Numbered from the stretch's first letter, positions 1,423 through 26,115 are shown. The stretch: DNA of 64,000 nt from Bacilli bacterium (GCA_024695235.1 JAILIP010000002.1:7093-71092); one strand, 5' to 3'. Made by a program: numbers and translations. The notes: a model not told the origin generated them from the letters alone.

Positions 1423-2526
1423 TTGAGGATTATGGAAAAACTTGTAATTTTAGGGAATGGATTTGATTTAGCATGTGGAATGAAAACATCGTTCTATGAT
1501 TTTTATAAAAATGTTAAAGCAAAAATTGAAATGCCGAACGGATATTTACCTAACTGCAATTTTATACTTTTCCTAATTTATGAAACATTCTTTGCCAACC
1601 AAGACACAACAAAAGCATTTCAAAAAGCATTGGCTATTGATTGTTATGACAATTGGATGGATATCGAGCTGTTATTAAATCATTTTGTTTTGGGTGAAAC
1701 TTTCAAAATAGCTGAGGGGGAATACAATCCAACTTTGCAAAATCGAAATGATTCCTTTATTGCACTACAATTCAGAAAATATTTTCAAAAAAGGAAAAGT
1801 GACATAAGCAATTTTGAACTCTTTGTTCATTCAGAGTTGTATGAATTTGAATTAATGCTGAGAAACTATATAGCTGCTGAAGCATCAAGTGATTTGATTT
1901 ATATGCAGTTTAAAGATGGATTGCTAGAAAAAATTGTTGGTGATCCAAAAACTTGCAAAATAATGACTTTTAATTACACAATACCAACCACGCTGGTCGA
2001 TTATAAAAATGTTAATTATGTGCATGGTTCACTTAGGGGAGAAATAATAGTTGGCATCGATGTTCTAGATTTGCAAAAAGGTGATGGCTACAAGAGAATC
2101 AATGGTGTGGTTAGTGATAAAACCATGTTCACAAAAACAAGAAAAAAACTATCTCATACAGCTATTGACGAAGCAAGCAACAGCGTTTTCGACAAAGATG
2201 TAAAAAAGATATATTTTTATGGTCATTCATTAAGCGAACAAGATTATTCCTATTTCCAAAGTTTGTTTGATTATTATGATATTTATTCGAGCGATATTTC
2301 ATTAGAATTTTGTTATAGCGAATATGATCCGAAAAACCCGGCAGTTGAAGTAGATCGTTTAACAACTCGTGTCTTTAATCTTCTCAATAAGTATGGAGAA
2401 ACATTCGACAACAAGAATCATGGCAATAATCTTTTGCACAAAATGCTCCTTGAAAATCGATTGTCTTTCAGAAAAATAGATTACAAATGTGGAAACAATT
2501 ATCTAAAATTCTTTTGCCAGTATTAG
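1423..2526 (+). CDS. AbiH-family abortive-infection protein
   Basis: N-terminal LVILGNGFDLACGMKTSFYDFY and C-terminal IYFYGHSLSEQDYSYF match the IIGNGFDL...TSY and GHSL..D..YF signatures I recall for AbiH (PF14253). Confidence 0.7.
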   Translation: MRIMEKLVILGNGFDLACGMKTSFYDFYKNVKAKIEMPNGYLPNCNFILFLIYETFFANQDTTKAFQKALAIDCYDNWMDIELLLNHFVLGETFKIAEGEYNPTLQNRNDSFIALQFRKYFQKRKSDISNFELFVHSELYEFELMLRNYIAAEASSDLIYMQFKDGLLEKIVGDPKTCKIMTFNYTIPTTLVDYKNVNYVHGSLRGEIIVGIDVLDLQKGDGYKRINGVVSDKTMFTKTRKKLSHTAIDEASNSVFDKDVKKIYFYGHSLSEQDYSYFQSLFDYYDIYSSDISLEFCYSEYDPKNPAVEVDRLTTRVFNLLNKYGETFDNKNHGNNLLHKMLLENRLSFRKIDYKCGNNYLKFFCQY

Positions 2527-2903
2527 TATTACTTCTTTTATGCACCGGTATTTTTATTAAAATTATAGATTTTTCGCTTTGGCTATTTGCTTTGAAAAAT
2601 TCTAGCCCTGATATCTCTATGGCTGGTGCTATTACCGCTAGAGCATTAGCGTTTATTACATCTTATTCATTGGTTGGCATAATTTTTGATATCTTTGGTT
2701 TGTGGAATAAAAGACTAATGTCAATTGCCTATATTGTTTTTTCGACATTATTAGGATTTTTAGTGGCGTATTTAATTTGGGTTATTGAAACACACATTGT
2801 CGTTCTGATGATTATTATGGGTGTGGCAGTGGTTCTAGTGGTTATTTACTTCCTTGTTACTAAGCTCATCCAAAAGAAAAAACCGGAATCGACTAAGCAA
2901 TAG
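2487..2903 (+). CDS. small integral membrane protein (about 4 TM), start overlaps the AbiH stop
   Basis: Four hydrophobic helices and a K-rich tail; 40-nt overlap with the upstream gene suggests translational coupling. Confidence 0.5.
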   Translation: MWKQLSKILLPVLVLLLLCTGIFIKIIDFSLWLFALKNSSPDISMAGAITARALAFITSYSLVGIIFDIFGLWNKRLMSIAYIVFSTLLGFLVAYLIWVIETHIVVLMIIMGVAVVLVVIYFLVTKLIQKKKPESTKQ

Positions 2904-2948
2904 TAAATTATATTAATAATTCCCTAACTAAAAGTTATAATATTTCCA

Positions 2949-5012
2949 ATGATTACTAAAACAGTTATTAAAGACTATGTAGCGAAAAGATGTCCTTATC
3001 TTGCATCTTTAGAATTAGAAGATAAGTCTCTTGTTCAACTGCTTGAAAAGTCCATTGATAATCAAGAGAAATATCAAGAGCTTCTTTTAGATCAAATTGA
3101 AGATGGAGAAGAAGCTGATTCTTTAATTAATCTTGTGGATGTTTTTAAAGACTATCCTCATTTAAAAAAACAATTAATTAAATATGCGAGCAATAAACCA
3201 AAAAATAAAGCAGAACAATTAGTGGAAAAATATAATGATGACCAAATTGTTTCTAAGCTATCTAGAAGATACTTTGAACTTATATATGGAAAAGATAAAT
3301 GTTTTAGATGTGATGTAAATCTTGATGGAGAAGAAATATTAAATCAGGGACTACTAAGTAAGATTACTGAAGACGCGTTAAAGAACAAAGAAATCAAAGT
3401 TATATTTGAAGGACAAATTGAGTTTTTAGATTTCCGTGCAAGGTTTGATATCATGGTTCGTCAAGATGATGGATCCTTTAGACTTATTGAAGTTAAAGGT
3501 TCTAATTCGGTATTTAAATCTAAAGATGATATTGATAAAGGAATCAAAGATAAATATCTCTATGATATGCTTTTTCAATATTATGTTTATTCTCACGCTG
3601 GATATAACATATCTTCTTTAGCATATATGTATTCTAGTAAAGACTTCTCTTTAAAAATACATTCATATCCTTTAGATGATTCTGAATTTAATGATTTCTT
3701 TATTGTGAAAGACTTCATTGCTTTAAAAGAAGAGACAATGTCACTTAAAAAATACTTTGATGGAGAATACTACGTTCCTAAAAAAGTAGATGATCCAAGC
3801 GAATACACGATTGAAGGAATCATATATGCGATTAAAGATATCGCTAAGATGAAAGATGTTAAACCTGAGATGAGATATCTATGTGTAAAAGGACCAAGAT
3901 GTCCATTCACATCAATGTGCTTCCCAAGTAGTGATGATCCAGATTCATTATTTAAATTAACTAGATGGAATCTATATGGTGGAAACTTTAGAGTGAGTGA
4001 AAAATTGTTAAGCTCAGGAGTAACAAAGATATCTTCTATTCCAGATAACTTAAATACATATTCACCTTTTAAAAGCGATCAAAAAAGACGTAATAATGTT
4101 GTCACTCAAATTGAATATCAAAAAGGAAAGATAAATAAAAAATATGTAATTGATAAATCTTTAATAAAAGAGATTTTAGAAAAAGACTATTTAAATGATG
4201 ATATTGATTACTTACTTTTCTTTGATTTTGAGTCATTTCAATATCCAATTCCTTTAGTAGAACATGTATGTGGTTGGAAACAAGTTGTCTCTCAATACTC
4301 AATGCATGTTGTTAAAAAAGGATATGACTTATCTAAGCATGATTTTGATAAAGGCATTGGAGGAGAAGTTAGACACTTTGAATATATCGCTAATCCGGAT
4401 GTAAGTGGATATATGAATCCGAGCATCGAATTATATGAAACACTAAAAAAACAATTAGAAGAATGCGGCATTGATCCATATGCATCAAACTATAGAGTCG
4501 TTGTTTTCAATAGAAACTTTGAAAAGACAAGAATGAATGAATTTGTAAAAGAATATATTGGACTTGCTAAAAGTGAATTAATAGAGTTTGTGAAAAACTT
4601 TAACAATAATGTTGTGGATCTATTAGACTTTTTCACCTCTGGAGGAATGTATTCAAAAGACTTTAATGGAAGAGGTTCACTTAAAGTTGTTCAACCTACC
4701 TTAGCAAGTGATAAAGATGTAATTGAATATTATAAGAAGATACTACCTTTTGATTTAAGTTATTCTCTTGATTATCACAAGGGCGAAAAGTGTCTTGTAT
4801 ATAACGGAGCGATTTGTCTAGATTTATATAAGTCTTTACTTGTTCGTTCTCATCTTGGTGGTCAAAAAGAAGGTGAACCATCTACAAGTGAATTACTGGC
4901 TGAAGCATTAGCATATTGTAAGATTGACTCTTGGGGCACGGTTATTATTTATGATGTTATTAAAAACGTCTATTTAGGAAAATTAAAACTAGATGCCTTA
5001 TTTGTGCAATAA
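2949..5012 (+). CDS. Cas4/RecB-like PD-(D/E)xK nuclease with Fe-S cysteines fused to an RNase-H-like/DnaQ-like (DUF2779-type) C-terminal domain
   Basis: Cys15, then FDIMV...LIEVKGS...FQYYVY (D / EVK / QxxxY motifs), then CVKGPRCPFTSMC (3 Cys); C-terminal half has LLFFDFESFQ (DEDD-like D-x-E motif). Confidence 0.55.
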   Translation: MITKTVIKDYVAKRCPYLASLELEDKSLVQLLEKSIDNQEKYQELLLDQIEDGEEADSLINLVDVFKDYPHLKKQLIKYASNKPKNKAEQLVEKYNDDQIVSKLSRRYFELIYGKDKCFRCDVNLDGEEILNQGLLSKITEDALKNKEIKVIFEGQIEFLDFRARFDIMVRQDDGSFRLIEVKGSNSVFKSKDDIDKGIKDKYLYDMLFQYYVYSHAGYNISSLAYMYSSKDFSLKIHSYPLDDSEFNDFFIVKDFIALKEETMSLKKYFDGEYYVPKKVDDPSEYTIEGIIYAIKDIAKMKDVKPEMRYLCVKGPRCPFTSMCFPSSDDPDSLFKLTRWNLYGGNFRVSEKLLSSGVTKISSIPDNLNTYSPFKSDQKRRNNVVTQIEYQKGKINKKYVIDKSLIKEILEKDYLNDDIDYLLFFDFESFQYPIPLVEHVCGWKQVVSQYSMHVVKKGYDLSKHDFDKGIGGEVRHFEYIANPDVSGYMNPSIELYETLKKQLEECGIDPYASNYRVVVFNRNFEKTRMNEFVKEYIGLAKSELIEFVKNFNNNVVDLLDFFTSGGMYSKDFNGRGSLKVVQPTLASDKDVIEYYKKILPFDLSYSLDYHKGEKCLVYNGAICLDLYKSLLVRSHLGGQKEGEPSTSELLAEALAYCKIDSWGTVIIYDVIKNVYLGKLKLDALFVQ

Positions 5013-5025
5013 CATTTAAAAAATT

Positions 5026-5051
5026 ATGGAAGCAATGCTTCCATTTTTTTG
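5026..5051 (+). terminator. rho-independent terminator
   Basis: atggaagc-aa-tgcttccat hairpin followed by TTTTTTT. Confidence 0.75.
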
Positions 5052-5105
5052 ACGAATGACACACTTTGGAATTTTTTGACTAGATAAAGGGTAGGAGGAT
5101 ATTTT
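5052..5105 (+). promoter_or_regulatory. promoter/RBS module, copy A (ATGACAcac...TAGATAaagGGTAGGAGG)
   Basis: Near-identical to the sequences at 7321-7371 and 8621-8673. Confidence 0.5.
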
Positions 5106-5870
5106 ATGAACGAATTCCAAATTGTTAAATATGAAGATAACGTCGTTGAATTAGATGTTAATTTTTCAACGGAAGATAATACTGTTTGGTTAACACTAAG
5201 CGAGATGTGCAAATTGTACAAGAAGGACAAGTCTGTTATATGGAGACAAATCAATAATATTTATGTTGAAAACAATGCCTTAAAAGGGGCAACTTATGCA
5301 AAATTTGCAACAGTTCAAACTGAAGGAAATAGAGTGATTAATAGGCTTGTTGATCATTATAAATTAGATATCGTTTTTGAGGTTGGTAAACGAATTAAAT
5401 CTAAGATAGCATCAGCCTTCTATAATTGGTGTCAAAATATACTAAATGAGTTAAAAAACGAACATAAAAGTAACTTTGTTACTTTCCACTCAAATGGACT
5501 AGTACTTGATGCATGTGTTTCTCCTGAAGAAAACACAGTCTACCTAACACAAAATGCAATGGCGGACTTATTTGAAACAAATCAACCAAATATTTCATAT
5601 CATATCAAGAGCATTATTGAAGAAGGAGAACTTAAAAATGAGGCAACTCATAAAAAATTTTTATTAGTTCAAATTGAGGGTGATAGGGAAGTAAAACGAG
5701 AGATGAGTTTTTATAATCTGGATATGATTCTTTCTGTTGGATATCGCGTGAAATCTAAGAACGCAATCCTTTTTAGAAGATGGGCAAGTGATGTTTTAAA
5801 AAGATATTTAGTCAAAGGGTACGCAATTGATGAAAAAAGAACACTTGTCGCACATTACATGAAAGAATAA
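5106..5870 (+). CDS. RhuM-family protein (two tandem RhuM N-domains, no C-terminal region)
   Basis: NTVYLTQNAMADLF...ISYHIKSIIEEGEL...YNLDMILSVGYRVKSKNAILFRRWASDVLKRYLVKGYAIDEKR matches the Virulence_RhuM family signature; the first half is a degenerate repeat of the same domain. Confidence 0.8.
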   Translation: MNEFQIVKYEDNVVELDVNFSTEDNTVWLTLSEMCKLYKKDKSVIWRQINNIYVENNALKGATYAKFATVQTEGNRVINRLVDHYKLDIVFEVGKRIKSKIASAFYNWCQNILNELKNEHKSNFVTFHSNGLVLDACVSPEENTVYLTQNAMADLFETNQPNISYHIKSIIEEGELKNEATHKKFLLVQIEGDREVKREMSFYNLDMILSVGYRVKSKNAILFRRWASDVLKRYLVKGYAIDEKRTLVAHYMKE

Positions 5871-5914
5871 AAAATTATCTTCCTTAATATCAATTAACAA
5901 AAGATAATATTACT

Positions 5915-6598
5915 ATGAAAAATTATCTCGTTACTTTCCTAAAGGGTATATTAGCAGGACTCGCTATTGGACTAGGTGGATTCTTATATATCCTTATGAC
6001 TTTTCTTTTTAGTGGTGATAACGCTGAACTAGGAAAGATATTTGGATCCATATTATTTTCAGTAGGTCTATTCCTTGTATGTACATTTTCTCTATCCTTA
6101 TATACCGGAAAGATAGGTCTAGTGTACGAAGAAAAACAAAGTAAAGAATTTTATATATCCTTACCTATCATGCTTATCGGTAATGCGATAGGAGCATTTG
6201 CGTTTGGATATATATGCTTTTTCATCTTTAGAAGTAGCGATGTATATTTCTCAGCATTAGCCACTGCAAATGCCAGATTACAGTTTAATGATGTATTGGA
6301 TTATCTTACTACTGCTATTAAAGCATTCTTATGTGGACTATGTGTCTATCTTGCAGTTAAATCATTTTCACTCAATAGACTTAAACCATTAGGTATTACC
6401 TTACTAGTATTCTTTGTATTCGTATTTGTCTATTGTGGTTTCCAACACTGTATCGCTAATATGTTCTATTTTGGAATGGCAAATACAATGAGTTGGTATA
6501 CACTCATAAATCTACTAATTGTTATCTTATTTAACTCCTTGGGACCTATTGTTGGAGTGAAACTAGTAAAACTAATTCAAAGTAATTATAGTAAGTAG
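5915..6598 (+). CDS. formate/nitrite transporter (FNT) family channel
   Basis: GILAGLAIGLGG, LYTGK (LFTGN-like) and HCIANMFY (HSIANMF signature); 6 TM. Confidence 0.6.
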   Translation: MKNYLVTFLKGILAGLAIGLGGFLYILMTFLFSGDNAELGKIFGSILFSVGLFLVCTFSLSLYTGKIGLVYEEKQSKEFYISLPIMLIGNAIGAFAFGYICFFIFRSSDVYFSALATANARLQFNDVLDYLTTAIKAFLCGLCVYLAVKSFSLNRLKPLGITLLVFFVFVFVYCGFQHCIANMFYFGMANTMSWYTLINLLIVILFNSLGPIVGVKLVKLIQSNYSK

Positions 6599-7267
6599 CA
6601 TTCCTATAACTATTAAAGCCTGAGCGATTAGATATGTTGACATAACTAAGACCTCGGCTTTTTTAATTGGCTTATAGAATTTGTTGTATACAAGGATAGA
6701 ATCAGATATCACGAACATAAATCCACCGATGGCTGTGATAAATAAATATAGTGGTATTGCCGTGGTTGATAAAATCATCACTAAGAAGTTAAAAAATAGG
6801 ATTGAGAAATACCCCATCATTGTGTATTGTTCAAACTTATTTTGAGTGAGTCTTTTGGCAATTAAATTTGTGGATGCTAAATAGAATAAAACTGCCACAA
6901 CAAAAGCGATGAGATATATCCACCATTGAAGGTGATTTCCGACGATGAGTATCAAAGATACTAAATATAAGATATGACTTGCTGCAAAAGAGAATGATCC
7001 AATATAAAATGGCATCTTCTTTTTAGACACCAAAAGTAAGTCTCCGAGCATTGAGAAGAACACTGCAATGTAAAGGATTGGCTTTGTCGGAATAGTGACT
7101 ATTACAAACACCATCAAAAAGAGAAGACAGAAAGTCTTTTCTTTACGACGAAGTTCATCTTTGTCTAAAGCCGCTAATGCAACTTGGATAATCGAAGCAA
7201 CTAAGAATAATCCGAAAAAGACATAACCTACGATAGGAATGTTTTTAAGAACATCAACAAAGTTCAT
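6572..7267 (-). CDS. YhhN-family (lysoplasmalogenase-like) membrane protein
   Basis: Polytopic membrane protein with a GDLLL motif; overlaps the FNT gene 3' end convergently. Confidence 0.4.
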   Translation of the reverse strand: MNFVDVLKNIPIVGYVFFGLFLVASIIQVALAALDKDELRRKEKTFCLLFLMVFVIVTIPTKPILYIAVFFSMLGDLLLVSKKKMPFYIGSFSFAASHILYLVSLILIVGNHLQWWIYLIAFVVAVLFYLASTNLIAKRLTQNKFEQYTMMGYFSILFFNFLVMILSTTAIPLYLFITAIGGFMFVISDSILVYNKFYKPIKKAEVLVMSTYLIAQALIVIGMLLTIITLN

Positions 7268-7299
7268 AACTAAGTTAATTTTATCTCACTTTCTAAATT

Positions 7300-7371
7300 T
7301 AGTCTCAAATTTTAACGAATTTTGACACACTTTTGATATTTTGGACTAGATAAAGTGTAGGAGGATATTTT
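7300..7371 (+). promoter_or_regulatory. promoter/RBS module, copy B (TTGACAcac...TAGATAaagtGTAGGAGG), including the 33-bp direct repeat at 7300-7332
   Basis: 7300-7332 is identical to 8603-8635; the promoter part resembles copies A and C. Confidence 0.55.
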
Positions 7372-8601
7372 ATGAAATATTCAAAACTAATATCAAATTT
7401 AGAAAAAGTCATTTTCACTGATGGTGATTTTCAGATGGAAATCGATGTAGAAAAAGGGACAAACGAGCCATGGCTATCATTGAATGAGCTGGCTTATTTC
7501 TATTCTAAAGATAAGTCTGATATTACTAGGCATTTAAACCAACGTGGTACAAAAATGCACCTAGCAGTTGCAAAAAATGCACCACCTAGAAGTGATGGTA
7601 AAGTGTACAAAACTTCTTGTTATAATCTTGAAACAATTATCGAAATCGGCTATCGAGTTAATTCGAAAAGAGGACAAAAACTAAAGGCGTTTTTAGATAA
7701 TTGTTTTGATTCAAATCTTATCGAAATTTCTAATGAAATTATTATATATAATAACGGAGATGTATCAATTGATGTTAGAATCTCTCCGCAAGAAAACACT
7801 GTATGGGTATCTCAAGACAAGATTGCCAAGCTATATGATTCATCTAAACAAGTAGTTTCTTATCACATTAAAAATATTCTTGATGATGAGGAACTCGATC
7901 GTTCAGTAGTCAAAGAAATTTTGACAACTGGATTAGATGGAAAAACGTACTCGATTTCTTACTACAATTTGGACATGGTCATTTCTATTGGTTATCGCAT
8001 AAATTCAAAGAAGGGAATTGCTTTTAGAAAATGGGCTGCATCCACACTTAAAGAGTATTTGATGAAAGGATATTTGGTTAATAAAGAAAGAACTCTTATT
8101 ACAAGTGAGAACTATCTTAATCTCGTAAACAAAGTTGATTCTCTTGAAAACAGAATGGACATCATTGAAGAAAAACAAAACCATCTTTTCATAGAGGATA
8201 AAGTCATATATGAGGGAACAGTATTTGATGCAATAGTGTTAATTAACAAACTCATTGAGATATCACACAGTTCCATTGTGCTTATCGATCCGTATATAGA
8301 TGTAAGAACTCTTGATGCCTTTAAAAGCAAAGAAAGAAATATAATGCTTTTCATCATCACATCGAGCAACAACAGACTCAGTGAAAAAGAGAAGCAAGCC
8401 TTCATAAAGCAATATGGTAGACTAAATGTTTTCTTGGATGATAGATATCATGATAGGTACTTAATCTTAGACAAAACATACTTTTACCATCTTGGCACTT
8501 CTATTAACTACCTTGGCAAACATTTCTCTCAAATCACCTTAGTGGTAGACGAAGACATCAAAGATGTTTTGCACCAAAGAATTAGGAACTATTTCCCTTG
8601 A
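7372..8601 (+). CDS. RhuM-family protein (two N-domains plus the about 150-aa C-terminal region)
   Basis: NTVWVSQDKIAKLYDSSKQVVSYHIKNILDDEEL...YNLDMVISIGYRINSKKGIAFRKWAASTLKEYLMKGYLVNKER. Confidence 0.8.
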   Translation: MKYSKLISNLEKVIFTDGDFQMEIDVEKGTNEPWLSLNELAYFYSKDKSDITRHLNQRGTKMHLAVAKNAPPRSDGKVYKTSCYNLETIIEIGYRVNSKRGQKLKAFLDNCFDSNLIEISNEIIIYNNGDVSIDVRISPQENTVWVSQDKIAKLYDSSKQVVSYHIKNILDDEELDRSVVKEILTTGLDGKTYSISYYNLDMVISIGYRINSKKGIAFRKWAASTLKEYLMKGYLVNKERTLITSENYLNLVNKVDSLENRMDIIEEKQNHLFIEDKVIYEGTVFDAIVLINKLIEISHSSIVLIDPYIDVRTLDAFKSKERNIMLFIITSSNNRLSEKEKQAFIKQYGRLNVFLDDRYHDRYLILDKTYFYHLGTSINYLGKHFSQITLVVDEDIKDVLHQRIRNYFP

Positions 8602-8602
8602 T

Positions 8603-8673
8603 TAGTCTCAAATTTTAACGAATTTTGACACACTTATTTGTTTTTTGACTATATAAAAGGGTGAGTGACGATG
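8603..8673 (+). promoter_or_regulatory. promoter/RBS module, copy C, driving only a 12-codon remnant ORF (8671-8709)
   Basis: 33-bp repeat, TTGACA...TATATAAAAGGGTGAGTGACGATG, then a short ORF MYPIRSRINYLY*. Confidence 0.45.
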
Positions 8674-8700
8674 TATCCCATACGCTCGCGAATAAATTAC

Positions 8701-8806
8701 TTGTATTAGTAACTGCATCTAATATATAATTTCATACGCGATAGAAATATCGCTTACTCTCTGCCATTAGCAAATAATGGCCAGAAGACCAAAGGGAGGT
8801 GTCTAT
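8701..8806 (+). promoter_or_regulatory. rpsF promoter (TTGTAT-18-TATAAT) and structured 5' leader
   Basis: -10 TATAAT at 8725-8730; the leader holds two hairpins (gcgata-gaaa-tatcgc and gccatt-agcaaat-aatggc) ahead of the GGGAGG RBS; an S6:S18-binding rpsF leader is known in Firmicutes. Confidence 0.45.
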
Positions 8807-9094
8807 ATGAAAAAGTACGAAGTAATGTACATCCTAAAAGCTGATCTCGAAGAAGAAGCTAGAAAGGCTGAAATTGAGAAGCTTCACGCCATTCTTACAA
8901 GCAATGGTGGTCAAGTCACAAATGTGAATGAATGGGGACTTAGAAACTTTGCATATCCAATCAATGATATGCTCAAAGGCTACTATGTCGTCATCAAAGT
9001 CACAACTGATGAAGTTGCTCTTAAAGAGTTTGTTCGCTTAGCAAAGATCAACCAAAACGTTGTCCGTCACTTAATCACAGTCGATAAAGACTAA
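8807..9094 (+). CDS. rpsF: 30S ribosomal protein S6
   Basis: MKKYEVMYILKADLEEE...; the start was moved from the ORF-track ATG at 8777 to the ATG preceded by the GGGAGG RBS. Confidence 0.9.
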   Translation: MKKYEVMYILKADLEEEARKAEIEKLHAILTSNGGQVTNVNEWGLRNFAYPINDMLKGYYVVIKVTTDEVALKEFVRLAKINQNVVRHLITVDKD

Positions 9095-9109
9095 TAGGAG
9101 GATTAAATT

Positions 9110-9529
9110 ATGATGAACAGAATCGTTGTCGTTGGTAGACTTACCCGCGACCCAGAACTAAGAAGAACCGCAAGCGATGTCGCTGTCTGCTCATTCTGCG
9201 TAGCAGTTGATGATCGTGAAAAAGATGCAAACGGAAACAGAACCACATCTTTCATTGATGTAACAGTATGGAGAGAAGCAGCAGATAATGTTGCTAAATT
9301 CTGCCGTAAAGGTTCACTCGTTGGAGTTGATGGAAGACTCCGTCAACGCCGCTTTGAAAGAAAAGATGGTACAAAAGGCTCCACATTTGAAATCGTTGCA
9401 GACAGTGTTCAATTCCTTGAACCAAAATCAAAAGATACTCCAAGTGAAATTGTGAGTGATGAACCTGCATTCGATGACAGCAAGAACTTAGATTCTATTG
9501 ATGTCACAGATGATGACCTTCCATTCTAA
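9110..9529 (+). CDS. ssb: single-stranded DNA-binding protein
   Basis: [18 protein letters not shown]-fold N-terminus, acidic DDDLPF tail; sits between rpsF and rpsR. Confidence 0.9.
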
Positions 9530-9546
9530 AAGAAAGGAATAAGAAA

Positions 9547-9774
9547 ATGGGATACAAAAAAATTAGACCACATAAAAAGGTTTGCTACTTTACCAAAAAT
9601 AAAGTCAAATATATCGACTACAAGGATGTTGAATTATTATCAAAATTCATCACCCCAACAGGTAAGATAGCTTCACGTCATAGCACCGGAACATGCGCTA
9701 AATATCAAAGAGAGCTTGCAAAAGCTATCAAGAACGCACGTTTCATGGGCTTATTACCATACGTTCAAGACTAA
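9547..9774 (+). CDS. rpsR: 30S ribosomal protein S18
   Basis: [29 protein letters not shown] typical of S18. Confidence 0.9.
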
Positions 9775-9790
9775 TTATGTGTTAAAAATA

Positions 9791-9817
9791 AGTCGTCCAT
9801 CATGGGCGACTTTTTTG
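9791..9817 (+). terminator. rho-independent terminator after rpsR
   Basis: agtcgtccatcatgggcgact hairpin followed by TTTTTT. Confidence 0.75.
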
Positions 9818-9892
9818 TTTATTTAACATTGTTCTTAAACCTAAAATATAATTCGGTATATAATACATTTATAATTCCAAAGGAGATCAATA

Positions 9893-10813
9893 ATGAAACA
9901 TTTAATTGTTGTTAATGGTAGTGCTGGTAGTTACACACCAGAATTCGAAGCCAAAATCGCTGAAGCTTTTAAAGATTTAGACTTTGAAATTTATAAAACT
10001 ACAGGTCCAAAAAGTGTCATCCCATTCTTAAAAGAATATCTCAAGAAAGCAAAAGACACCGTCCGTGTTTATGCTTGTGGTGGTGATGGTACAATCCATG
10101 AAGTCGTCAATGGTGTCATTGGCTTTAAAAATGCTGAAGTCGCTATTGTCGCTACAGGTACCGGTAATGACTTTGTCAAAATCTATGGCGGCAAAGAAAA
10201 ATTCCAAGATTTTGCTAGCTTAATTAAAGGCAAAGCTCATCCAATCGATGTCTCTGAACTTACCGGAGAAGGTGTTGAAGGATCAATGTATAGCGTTAAT
10301 GTCATTAACTTTGGTTTTGATGCGATCGTTGGAGCAATGGGCAACTACTATAAAGAACATGGTTTACCAGAAGGCACCAAAGAAGGTACAAACCCATATG
10401 ATTATGCTTTAAAGCATGACGCTATGAAACATGGTCGTTTCAACGATATTGAAGTATTCGCTGATGGTGAAAAACTCAATGAGAAACAAATGCTTCTTGC
10501 CACGCTTGCTCAAGGTCAATTCGTTGGTGGCCAATTCAAATGCGCTCCAAAGAGTGATAATACCGATGGTCTCATCGATGTCTGTGTTCTTAAGACTATG
10601 ACATTCCTTGGCTTAGGCATGATTATTGGAACATATACCAAAGGCAAACACCTTGATAAGCCACGTAAGAAAATCGTCTATCGTAGAGCAAAGGAAATTA
10701 AGTTCTGCTCACCAAAAGACTTCGATGTCTGTGTTGATGGCGAAATGATCAAAGGAAACAACTTCACAGTTAAAGTTGTTCCAGGCGCAGTCAATCTCGT
10801 CTTACCTGAATAA
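9893..10813 (+). CDS. DagK/YegS-family lipid kinase
   Basis: GGDGTIHEVVNG catalytic motif of the diacylglycerol-kinase catalytic domain. Confidence 0.75.
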   Translation: MKHLIVVNGSAGSYTPEFEAKIAEAFKDLDFEIYKTTGPKSVIPFLKEYLKKAKDTVRVYACGGDGTIHEVVNGVIGFKNAEVAIVATGTGNDFVKIYGGKEKFQDFASLIKGKAHPIDVSELTGEGVEGSMYSVNVINFGFDAIVGAMGNYYKEHGLPEGTKEGTNPYDYALKHDAMKHGRFNDIEVFADGEKLNEKQMLLATLAQGQFVGGQFKCAPKSDNTDGLIDVCVLKTMTFLGLGMIIGTYTKGKHLDKPRKKIVYRRAKEIKFCSPKDFDVCVDGEMIKGNNFTVKVVPGAVNLVLPE

Positions 10814-15779: not shown

Positions 15780-15826
15780 TTATCTGAACTATAAAGATTA
15801 AATGTGTTTTACACAGCCAACTCGGT

Positions 15827-15858
15827 TAATCCGGGTTGGTTTTCTTTATTACTTCTTT
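15827..15858 (+). terminator. rho-independent terminator
   Basis: ccaactcgg-ttaat-ccgggttgg hairpin followed by ttttcttt. Confidence 0.75.
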
Positions 15859-15930
15859 AACATGTTTTTCAAATATTAATCAACTTTGTTAATTATATTT
15901 GGTGACTTTGTTGTATAATAGTAATCACTT

Positions 15931-17949
15931 ATGAGAACGAAACTCAGAAATTTTAGGTTTGTATTCTTTATAACAGCGATGGTAGAACTCGTTGCTATCG
16001 TTCTTTTTGGAGTGTTCTATTACACGAATGTTTTTAACCTAAAAGAGATAATGAATGTATCTGTTTTATACATCATTCTTTCTGTGTTTATCGTTTTAGA
16101 TATCATTTTCACATGGATAGCATCTTTAATTTTCGCGCGCATCCGTAGACAAAGTGATTTACACGCGGCAGATTTAATAGGTGCAGATATTCAAGAAGCA
16201 TATAACTTTGGTCTAATTGGTTTAGCAATTGTTGATGAAAACAACACTGTTATTTGGACCAATGATTTATTCAAAGAAAGACAAATTGATATTCTTGATA
16301 CCAATATTCTTGAATGGCAACCAAAATTAAAAGAGTTTGAATCATCTGCCAGTGATGCAGTTGTTAAACTTGTTATCAATTCACGTCACTATGAAGTTAA
16401 GTATCTTTCAAATGCCGGACTATATATCTTCAAAGATAATACCGAATATGAAAATACATATGACTTTTCAAAAAGACAAGCCACTGTCGTGGGTATTATC
16501 ATGATTGATAACTACTCTGATTTAAGTGGTACAACAGATGACTCTAACGATATTATCTCCAAAATCAGAAATATCATCTTTGAATACGTCAAAAGATTCA
16601 ACGTTTTAGTTCGTAGATATCGTAATGATGCCTACTATGTCATTTGTAACCATGAATCACTTCAGCAAATGGAAGATGATAAGTTCTCATTAATTGAACA
16701 AATCCATAAGATTGGTGAAAAACAAGAAACACCTCCAACTCTTTCTATTGGTTTAGCTCACGGATTCCCAGATGTAGTTAAGCTAAACGAAATGGCTGAA
16801 AATGCGATTGATATTGCTATGAGCCGTGGTGGTGACCAAGTTGTTGTCTCTAAATATGGTGAAGAACTTCAATTCTATGGCGGTAAGTTCGAAGCCCAAG
16901 AAAATAGAAACAAAGTTAAAGTCCGTGTTATGGCAGACTCTGTCATTTCCCTTATCCGCAACTCATCTAACGTTGTTATCATGGGTCACACAGATATGGA
17001 TATGGACGCTCTTGGATCATGTTTAGGTATGAAAGCCTTATGTGAACACTGCCGTAAACCATCAGTGGTCGTATATGATCAAAAAGATGCTGAAAGAAAA
17101 ACTAGAGGTGCTGTTACAGCTTCCTTCTCAAGAGAAGAAGTCGCAAAGATCACAGTATCTCCAAATGATGCTTTAGATTTAATTAAGTCAAACACCCTTG
17201 TTGTCGTGTGTGATGTTCATAGACCATCCCTCACCACAAATCCAAAGGTACTTGATAAGGCTACCAAGGTTATGGTCATTGATCACCATAGAAGAAGTGA
17301 AGAATTTATTGATTCACCTGTCTTTAGCTATGTTGAACCAAGTGCTTCATCTGCTTCTGAAATGGTCGCAGAACTTATTCATTACTGTTCTGAAAACCCA
17401 AGAGTTAATATTCCAAGTAGCTATGCTACTATCATGCTTTCAGGTATATTTATGGACACTAACTACTTCAAGAGTAAAACTTGTGGTATTCGTACATTTG
17501 AAGCCAGCATGATTCTAAAAGAATTCGGCGCAGATAACTCAACTGCTGATGACTTCTTGAAAGATGAATTCGAAGAATACACTCTTATTACAAGAATTAT
17601 TTCTACTCTTAAGACTCCATATTATGGAATCGTATATTGTCTAGCAGATGAAGATGACATCATTGAAGCTGCAACATTAGCTAAAGTTGGCAATCAATGT
17701 ATGCAAATGAGAGGCGTTAATGCTGCCTTTGTCATTGGTAAGACTGGTGAAAAAGAAGTTCGTGTTTCTTGTAGAAGTGATGGATCAGTTAACGTCCAAC
17801 TTCTTGCAGAACAACTTAACGGAGGAGGACACTTCACCTCTGCAGCAGGTTCTTTTAAGAACACTACTATTGCTAGAGTAGAATCCCGCCTCCTTGAAGT
17901 ATTAAATGAATATTTAAATGATGCAAAGACATCTAAGGAAGAAAAGTAG
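15931..17949 (+). CDS. gdpP: cyclic-di-AMP phosphodiesterase GdpP (TM-PAS-degenerate GGDEF-DHH-DHHA1)
   Basis: Two N-terminal TM helices, DHH domain (GHTDMDMDALGS), DHHA1 GGGH motif (LNGGGHFTSAAGS); conserved position immediately upstream of rplI-dnaB. Confidence 0.85.
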   Translation: MRTKLRNFRFVFFITAMVELVAIVLFGVFYYTNVFNLKEIMNVSVLYIILSVFIVLDIIFTWIASLIFARIRRQSDLHAADLIGADIQEAYNFGLIGLAIVDENNTVIWTNDLFKERQIDILDTNILEWQPKLKEFESSASDAVVKLVINSRHYEVKYLSNAGLYIFKDNTEYENTYDFSKRQATVVGIIMIDNYSDLSGTTDDSNDIISKIRNIIFEYVKRFNVLVRRYRNDAYYVICNHESLQQMEDDKFSLIEQIHKIGEKQETPPTLSIGLAHGFPDVVKLNEMAENAIDIAMSRGGDQVVVSKYGEELQFYGGKFEAQENRNKVKVRVMADSVISLIRNSSNVVIMGHTDMDMDALGSCLGMKALCEHCRKPSVVVYDQKDAERKTRGAVTASFSREEVAKITVSPNDALDLIKSNTLVVVCDVHRPSLTTNPKVLDKATKVMVIDHHRRSEEFIDSPVFSYVEPSASSASEMVAELIHYCSENPRVNIPSSYATIMLSGIFMDTNYFKSKTCGIRTFEASMILKEFGADNSTADDFLKDEFEEYTLITRIISTLKTPYYGIVYCLADEDDIIEAATLAKVGNQCMQMRGVNAAFVIGKTGEKEVRVSCRSDGSVNVQLLAEQLNGGGHFTSAAGSFKNTTIARVESRLLEVLNEYLNDAKTSKEEK

Positions 17950-25722: not shown

Positions 25723-26115
25723 GGGTCTGACACAGTTTCGACAGGGATGATTGCTTGGCAATAACTGCAGCCGAGTGGTGACGTAATCACCAAACAAAAA
25801 TAACTGACAACAGTTACATGAGAGCTCCAAGAGCTCAAGCATTCTGCGCAGCTTAATTAAGCTCCCGACATAGGGTTCCGACGCAAGGCGCCGGCCAGAT
25901 CACCTCTTGATGGATTAGCCTTTCTTCGTCAATAAAGGTGTTAAATGAAAGGATAGGTTAAGACAGTTGACTTGCTAACCTTAGCCGAATATCAAAAAGT
26001 CTCGCGAAGATAGTTACGATATACGATGCTTCGTTAAAGATAAATATCGTCTAAGCTGTAGACGTTATTGTAGGGCCTTCCTTGGACACGGGTGCAATTC
26101 CCGCCAGATCCACCA
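25723..26115 (+). ncRNA. ssrA: tmRNA (SsrA)
   Basis: 5' GGGUCUG pairs with 3' CAGAUCC-ACCA including a G3:U wobble (alanine identity); 3' GGACACGGGUGCAAUUCCCGCCAGAUCCACCA T-arm/acceptor; TATAAT -10 at 25702-25707; intrinsic terminator follows. Confidence 0.85.

Follow-up and report, generated by a model that had tools for sequence, protein, structure and literature searches.

A stretch of 64,000 nucleotides from a Bacilli bacterium (GCA_024695235.1, JAILIP010000002.1:7093-71092; the window in the following) carries a short upstream module in three copies, two of them in front of RhuM genes and one in front of rpsF, the gene of ribosomal protein S6, and the question raised by this locus is which of the copies is the original and when, and by what kind of event, the RhuM genes came to share it. 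A reading of the sequence alone had proposed a recent insertion or duplication of the RhuM-containing segment. Comparison with related lineages points elsewhere: the copy at rpsF is probably the original, and an older local duplication of this distal upstream module onto two RhuM genes, not a mobile insertion, is the explanation that we favour. The copies and the features they adjoin are the following.

5026-5044, plus strand: intrinsic terminator of the DUF2779 gene, abutting module A
5046-5108, plus strand: module copy A, TTTTTGACGAATGACACACTT…GACTAGATAAAGGGTAGGAGGATATTTTATG, which takes up all the DNA from the DUF2779 terminator to the start codon of RhuM slot 1
5106-5870, plus strand: RhuM slot 1, 254 aa, PF13310, a truncated allele
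7299-7374, plus strand: module copy B, in the 104 bp that separate RhuM slot 2 from the divergently oriented YhhN gene (minus strand)
7372-8601, plus strand: RhuM slot 2, 409 aa, intact, with two N-terminal repeats, the RhuM core and a C-terminal domain
8602-8673, plus strand: module copy C, native to rpsF as its distal upstream region, beginning directly after the stop of RhuM slot 2

The three copies are all direct, in one orientation, and span 3.6 kb. The sequence GACTAGATAAAG[G/T]GTAGGAGGATATTTTATG precedes both RhuM start codons (5078-5108 and 7344-7374) with 30 of 31 bases the same, and an exact direct repeat, TTAGTCTCAAATTTTAACGAATTTTGACACACTT, is found at 7299-7332 and again at 8602-8635, directly 3' of the TGA stop of the 409-aa RhuM gene; shuffled sequences gave an expectation of 0 for either match. 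Copies B and C have TTGACACACTT as their core box, copy A has ATGACACACTT and, when a gap of 2 nt is allowed, the likeness of A to B and C reaches further upstream, to TTTT[G/A]ACGAAT, which gives the module its size of ~60 bp. Copies A and B match in 56 of 66 aligned columns (85%) while the coding DNA just downstream is ~58% identical, and between the window and L001, a related lineage treated below, copy A is 95.8% conserved. A profile built from the six copies of the window and L001 found exactly three sites in the 64-kb window and, at E<0.08, none besides in related loci amounting to 1.2 Mb. The module pattern gave 0 matches in species-representative genomes, and scans of JGI metagenomes with this pattern and with the mini-ORF motif (see below) gave 0 matches each. 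Sequence and profile thus confirm the three related modules, two before RhuM genes and one before rpsF, seen in the sequence-only reading, and Pfam confirms the block content given there (RhuM, FNT, YhhN-like, RhuM); the direct repeat around the long RhuM gene, reported as perfect and 33 bp long, is indeed exact but measures 34 bp.

When comparing the copies part by part, copy B proved to be a hybrid of the other two. Its left arm is that of C (34/34), A having only TTTTRACGAAT in common with them and for the rest the T-run of the DUF2779 terminator, and the core GACACACTT is present in every copy. In the spacer A and B agree (TTGAWWTTTT) and C reads ATTTRWTTTT; the TA box is TAGATA in A and B, TACATA in B of L001 and TATATA in C; and the segment from the Shine-Dalgarno sequence to the ATG is alike in A and B (30/31) but different in C. 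The left arm of C and the right arm of A (7344-7374) are thus joined in B at the core, and such a hybrid looks like the junction expected of recombination between direct repeats, either unequal crossing-over or Campbell-type integration. Of the proposal that repeat-mediated recombination had copied a promoter, the homology of the copies holds, the chimeric nature of B speaks for recombination between them, and the promoter is putative.

The age of this arrangement is seen from L001. The S6 protein of the window is encoded identically on metagenome contigs from other samples, and L001 shows the same gene order with module copies at 2085-2143, 4823-4881 and 6117-6175. DNA identity between the window and L001 is 94.4% for the DUF2779 gene, 92.7% for the formate/nitrite transporter (FNT) gene, 92.5% for the YhhN gene, 96.3% for the DAGK-family gene and 98.5% for rpsF-ssb-rpsR. 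Since L001 has the same three copies, the triplication is older than the 5-7% divergence of the less constrained flanks, and the perfect repeat is not a sign of a recent event, because 0 changes in 68 bp on the lineage of the window are unremarkable at such divergence. In L001 the left arms of B and C show 2 mismatches over 34 positions (AATAAA versus AACGAA). Copies B and C there also both read TTTCGACACAC where the window and the outgroups have a T at the aligned position, and this single T-to-C change common to the two is modest evidence for what may be gene conversion between copies. Dating the event as recent is therefore not upheld: the three copies are shared with a lineage in which the DNA of the flanking genes is 92.5-94.4% identical and the arms are no longer the same. 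Relatives carrying the identical arrangement with diverged repeats had been named in advance as the sign of an ancient, fixed layout, and as far as two lineages allow this is what was found, comparison with relatives giving no empty site. Exact-protein look-ups with RhuM slot 2, YhhN, FNT, SSB and DAGK of the window returned no record and no closer strain of its lineage was found. In a third lineage (P0143, DAGK 96.4% identical) the recovered locus begins inside ssb and the upstream region of rpsF is not readable.

The direction of copying was read from a wider set of relatives, consisting of species-representative genomes (S6 72-86% identical) and metagenome contigs with identical S18. Their gene order is mfd, an S4-domain gene, tilS, ftsH, dus, lysS, a terminator, rpsF, ssb and rpsR, and RhuM, FNT, YhhN and DUF2779 are absent from up to 10 kb upstream of rpsF. 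In the window, module C is followed by these features.

8671-8709, plus strand: 12-codon mini-ORF, MYPIRSRINYLY and a stop, part of the conserved (A/T)TGTATCCC…GCGAATAAA element
8701-8730, plus strand: proximal rpsF promoter P2, with -35 TTGTAT, an 18-nt spacer and -10 TATAAT
8731-8806, plus strand: rpsF 5' leader with the conserved hairpins CGCGATAGAAATATCGC and GCCATTAGCAAATAATGGC and the motif CTCTCTGC…AGAAGACC
8807-9094, plus strand: rpsF (ribosomal protein S6), likely start ATG 8807 behind GGGAGG

The lysS-rpsF spacers of the RhuM-free relatives share with copy C a TGA(N)CACTTTT box, a TA-rich hexamer and GTGGAGG(TGA), and with the DNA after C the (A/T)TGTATCCC motif, GCGAATAAA / GCGAA(A)TAAA, the P2 promoter and the hairpin leader, the conserved part of copy C in these relatives running from the TA-rich box onward (right half). 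P2 is kept as CTTGAAT-N17/18-TATAAT in all relatives, and the leader hairpins and CTCTCTGC…AGAAGACC are seen in all of them as invariant columns. The mini-ORF of the window begins at the conserved ATGTATCCC, a start motif also present in L004, L009, L014, L056-L064 and L075; its reading (MYP[VISM]R…) spans 4 to ~30 codons in relatives with a varying stop, while TAT CCC is nucleotide-invariant, a pattern that resembles a DNA or RNA element and not a peptide. The closer lineage of L074-L080 (DAGK protein 94% identical) has the order lysS, DegV, a 404-aa RhuM gene, two small minus-strand genes, one module and rpsF; the module occurs at rpsF only, the mini-ORF reads TTG-YPMRSRTNILY followed by a stop, and the region upstream of the RhuM gene is unrelated and has its own terminator-like hairpin. 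As these elements are conserved upstream of rpsF without RhuM, the native site of copy C is at rpsF and the mini-ORF is no RhuM remnant; the view of C as a diverged copy driving a remnant ORF is contradicted by the mini-ORF start and flanking motifs kept in the RhuM-free lysS-rpsF relatives. Copies A and B are accordingly best read as the derived ones, each setting the RhuM start codon where the start of the mini-ORF lies.

Some further observations concern this region. A block corresponding to 8640-8700, with a strong Shine-Dalgarno sequence GGAGGTGA, (A/T)TG TAT CCC and GCGAA(A)TAAA, is conserved before the canonical rpsF promoter in many uncultured Bacilli. RhuM genes recur near rpsF in the clade, that of L074-L080 (e.g. 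L075 10001-11215) being 44% identical. The longest rpsF ORF begins at 8777, but ATG 8807 gives the usual MKKYEVMYILK start and a product of 95 aa, as called in L061 and L074, and positions 8777-8806 belong to the conserved leader. A search of 4000-10000 against Rfam at E ≤ 1 gave chance matches only, and none for the rpsF leader, which may be the described leader bound by the S6:S18 complex.

In the scenario we favour, the module would ancestrally have been the distal upstream region of the rpsF-ssb-rpsR operon, represented by copy C, and in the lineage of the window two paralogous RhuM genes would have come to lie behind the extra copies A and B, these copies arising by homologous or illegitimate recombination among copies, without a mobile element. 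Next to copy B, as next to the single module of L075, lies a membrane-protein gene that diverges from it on the minus strand, and C retains the right context; these contexts suggest that slot 2 was inserted into one ancestral module, the module being duplicated. Where an insertion duplicates the module, the essential rpsF operon would keep an unbroken upstream region. The event would have taken place before the split of the two sampled lineages (5-7% in flank DNA). Today the modules form the conserved left edge of RhuM segments that have been replaced or degraded between strains, and they may act as homology anchors for the exchange of such segments.

Both RhuM genes score well above the PF13310 cut-off of 33.7 bits (slot 1 122.4 bits, slot 2 101.7 bits), carry the NCBI name "virulence RhuM family protein" and match the PADLOC profiles PDC-S05/PDC-S23 with E down to 6.6e-75 (slot 1) and 6.2e-85 (slot 2), and from these profile matches they are candidate phage-defence genes. 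RhuM-like proteins have been described as putative toxins associated with restriction-modification loci (PMC3710099) and RhuM genes as enriched beside genes with programmed inversions (PMC9881135). When comparing the window with L001, the divergence jumps just after each module, so that the divergent tracts begin at the modules. From 5109 onward slot 1 is 69% identical, and in the window it has a deletion of ~470 bp with its junction at ~5847-5850, through which the C-terminal domain is lost and the frame shifted. In slot 2 the comparison defines one replaced tract.

7375-7705, plus strand: replaced N-terminal segment of RhuM slot 2 (~110 codons)

Over this tract window and L001 are 54% identical in DNA and 42% in protein, the remainder of the gene being 91.5% identical in DNA, and the L001 segment is no nearer to that of the window than homologues of unrelated source are. 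In two independent samples the contigs end exactly at the start codon of slot 2 and resume exactly at the end of the tract, which suggests that slot 2 alleles may coexist in those communities; the breaks, at the end of L066 and the start of L002 and L003 (equal to L001 4902 and 5227), mark the edges of a ~324-bp N-terminal segment. In L001 slot 1 (2158-3410) has a frameshift near A6 runs, repeated in contigs of four samples, and slot 2 a CAA-to-TAA stop at L001 5304-5306, so that three of the four sampled RhuM alleles are damaged and only slot 2 of the window is intact. The two slot proteins of the window share ~31% identity over their common ~245 residues. For residues 120-409 of slot 2 the best non-self match is L001 slot 1 (58%, 352 bits), 119 other database homologues scoring at most 327 bits, which is consistent with local paralogy. 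The C-terminal domain of slot 2 (residues ~280-400) contains …IVLIDPYID…RYHDRYLILD…YHLGTSINYLG… and gave weak matches only (VPA1262 N-terminal domain 8.6e-08, AAA_12 0.004); one slot 2 homologue is annotated with a PLD-like domain, and a sequence search of the PDB with slot 2 gave no match.

As to the function of the module, AGGAGG lies 7 nt upstream of the ATG in copies A and B, within the 5-10 nt of a Shine-Dalgarno sequence, and copy C has the weaker GGGTGAG/GTGA before the ATG of the mini-ORF; modules A and B supply the ribosome-binding site of the RhuM genes. From left to right the module contains an AT-rich stretch, a TTGACA-like box (in the core GACACACTT), 19 bp on a TAnATA box, the Shine-Dalgarno sequence and the mini-ORF start, and the sole consistent promoter candidate pairs TTGACA/ATGACA/TCGACA with TA[G/C/T]ATA at 19 bp. 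Judged by its position, the chance that the module holds the RhuM promoter is about even. Module A is a putative promoter of slot 1, since it is the sole non-coding DNA between a terminator and the start codon, and module B is likewise a putative promoter, since it fills most of the 104-bp divergent intergenic region; the variable third position of the TA box fits a -10 box. Between slot 2 and module C there is no terminator, and slot 2 transcripts probably read into the rpsF leader. Other candidates were rejected: a reading with TTGACT as -35 box and a -10 box overlapping the start codon (scan matches at 5076-5105) is kept neither in copy B of L001 nor in copy C and would begin transcription inside the ORF; the hairpin I5, formed by the spacer of module A and codons 3-5 of slot 1, is disrupted in L001, and any start site within the module would be downstream of it; and a CodY box at AATTTTAACGAATTT agrees in 11/15 positions only, by eye.

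Several points weigh against this picture of an older duplication that gave the RhuM genes their expression signals. No empty-site or intermediate genome was found among the sampled relatives, the triplication is known from two lineages only, and we infer both the mechanism and the succession of steps. It is the right half of the module that best bears out the polarity argument, the likeness of its left and middle parts to L075 being seen by eye and missed by the profile. With three of four sampled alleles damaged, the current function of the RhuM expression units is doubtful. The promoter candidate falls outside the sigma-70 consensus, with a 19-bp spacer where 16-18 bp are required and a TA box that lacks the final T, and the promoter scan did not report the TTGACA/TAnATA pairing. 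The first box varies (ATGACA in A, TCGACA in L001 B and C) and stands 23 bp from the TA box in L075; because both sequence and spacing vary it may not be a -35 box, and the core may instead be a regulator site.

The surroundings of the block bear on whether it is mobile. The neighbouring genes are listed below.

1423-2526, plus strand: AbiH-family abortive-infection gene (Pfam 5.7e-25)
2949-5012, plus strand: DUF2779 protein gene, left flank of the block
5915-6598, plus strand: FNT family gene
6572-7267, minus strand: YhhN-family (lysoplasmalogenase-like) gene, divergent from RhuM slot 2

Downstream of the block Pfam identifies the genes of S6, SSB and S18. The FNT (plus) and YhhN (minus) genes converge, their 3' ends overlapping by 27 bp (6572-6598). 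Orthologues of YhhN in other species lie in unrelated contexts and are therefore of no help in dating the block. Because AbiH and DUF2779 adjoin RhuM genes with PADLOC matches, the block looks like a defence island; the lineage has it where relatives have lysS beside rpsF, and lysS is not in the window. Pfam scans found no integrase, invertase or transposase among 19 ORFs of at least 150 aa within 1423-23076 and no recombinase in three small ORFs upstream of 2949, the scan thus covering ORFs up to 23076. A tRNA search of the 64-kb window gave no tRNA gene but a distant transfer-messenger RNA (tmRNA) gene, at 25723-26115, with the tag peptide DNSYMRAPRAQAFCAA. Searches of phage and plasmid DNA gave no match, and no terminal-inverted-repeat (TIR) or target-duplication structure was found at the modules; inside a module there is no inverted-repeat pair, and only I5 and I7 (26 nt, 73%) reach from the module into RhuM coding sequence. 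With neither recombinase in the scanned ORFs, tRNA in the window, TIR or target duplication nor phage or plasmid match, the idea of a mobile insertion finds no backing. Excision by homologous recombination across the 34-bp repeat would be possible in principle. In L001 an extra 230-aa minus-strand gene (7338-8030) occupies the interval between rpsR and the DAGK-family gene, which lacks it in the window (~9821), and in L074 the DAGK-family gene is followed closely by an insertion-sequence transposase (rve + HTH_Tnp_1; 15787-16892) that the window does not show.

Against this background a recent repeat-mediated insertion or duplication of the RhuM segment, still able to excise or amplify, appears improbable. 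The perfect 34-bp repeat around slot 2 and the chimeric copy B would suit it, and the contig breaks at slot 2 in other samples point to heterogeneity of the population just there, but the same layout is present in a lineage 5-7% diverged in the flanks with 2 of 34 arm positions mismatched, an unchanged 68 bp along one lineage is not unusual at that divergence, and the breaks fall at the replaced N-terminal tract and not at the repeat pair; besides, an empty site was not seen, the neighbouring ORFs that were scanned include no recombinase, and the window has no tRNA gene. That the window comes from a metagenome-assembled genome raises the thought of a contig misjoined or duplicated at the repeat. 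Such an artefact is hardly credible, since other samples and other assembly methods give the same three copies and gene order and the contig names of independent relative assemblies (k141) imply k-mers longer than the 34-bp repeat.

Selection might instead have preserved the likeness of the copies, as operators or activator sites through which a single regulator controls the RhuM genes and the rpsF operon together, their similarity then reflecting function and not history alone, a view compatible with an older duplication and one that we hold to be possible though not likely. The module is better conserved than the adjoining coding DNA, the TGA(N)CACTT core and the TA box are conserved before rpsF in different species, the same T-to-C change has taken place in B and C of L001 and two TTGAC-like boxes stand ~21 bp apart; yet no regulator gene or known motif was identified, the 64-kb window holds no more copies, the perfectly identical 23 bp before the core look like shared descent or gene conversion, and the damaged RhuM genes speak against strong selection on their control regions. 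If the module were the site of a site-specific recombinase and the RhuM genes exchangeable cassettes, as in an integron or shufflon, the composition of B (left arm of C, core, right arm of A) would resemble a hybrid attachment site, RhuM alleles would be swapped from the module onward as is seen between strains, and the enrichment of RhuM beside genes with programmed inversions (PMC9881135) would be in keeping; this is nevertheless very improbable, as no integrase, invertase or transposase was found in the ORFs scanned, the repeats are direct with neither attC-like nor inverted-repeat arms within the module, and the right edges of the replaced tracts lie inside genes and not at the repeat. A more far-reaching and decidedly speculative proposal is that the distal block of rpsF, made up of the TGA(N)CACTT box, a strong Shine-Dalgarno sequence and the conserved (A/T)TGTATCCC at which the mini-ORF begins, might be an undescribed control element responsive to the state of the translation apparatus. 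Its co-option would put the RhuM candidate toxin or defence genes under the control of ribosome status, and it would at the same time serve as a portable homology anchor that makes the site near rpsF a hotspot for the exchange, as cassettes, of RhuM N-terminal (target-recognition?) domains.

The older duplication that we favour most resembles local segmental duplication with promoter capture. Here three direct copies stand close together, over 3.6 kb, that in the middle combining parts of the other two; all of them run up to a start codon, which gives each gene the same translation start region, and the original has stayed before the resident operon. B has the hybrid junction expected of unequal crossing-over, and both segments it bounds begin with a RhuM gene, the RhuM genes of the two slots being each other's best match in the core (58%). 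Unlike in such a case, the segments between the copies are not simple duplicates, the slot proteins being 31-58% identical and FNT and YhhN single, and therefore extra steps are needed, namely allele replacement, deletion or gene conversion. Defence islands beside core genes offer another likeness, with AbiH, DUF2779 and two PADLOC-matching RhuM genes beside rpsF-ssb-rpsR, content that varies by lineage (none, one RhuM, two RhuM and others) and alleles replaced or pseudogenised, although the defence role of RhuM is here a candidate one, by profile match; cargo genes bearing copies of the core operon's own upstream region are not known as a hallmark of defence hotspots. Integron cassettes are likewise ORFs parted by short repeats with a shared core and exchanged as units, but here there is no integrase among the scanned ORFs and no attC-type imperfect inverted repeat, each copy has its own putative promoter and ribosome-binding site where integrons have one common promoter, and the exchange tracts end inside genes. 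Promoter-bearing intergenic repeats or miniature elements are known, for example the Correia elements of Neisseria or BOX/RUP of pneumococci. Like these, the module is a short intergenic repeat placed so as to give promoter-like boxes to downstream genes; in contrast to them, it has three local copies and no others dispersed over the 64 kb or over 1.2 Mb of related loci, and it lacks terminal inverted repeats and target duplications.

For the annotation of such loci the case is a caution: that a short, perfect repeat encloses a gene does not on its own show that the gene was inserted recently or by a mobile element, and here it was the comparison with two further lineages that turned round the presumed copying direction and gave the event a greater age. 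In other respects the biology is unremarkable; genome changes of this kind are known, this being one more case, and the RhuM genes are mostly degraded. It offers a small, clean example of accessory candidate-defence genes that were probably wired in by copying the upstream region of an essential operon, the operon keeping its own, and of conserved 5' modules that mark the edges of allele replacement in fast-evolving genes.

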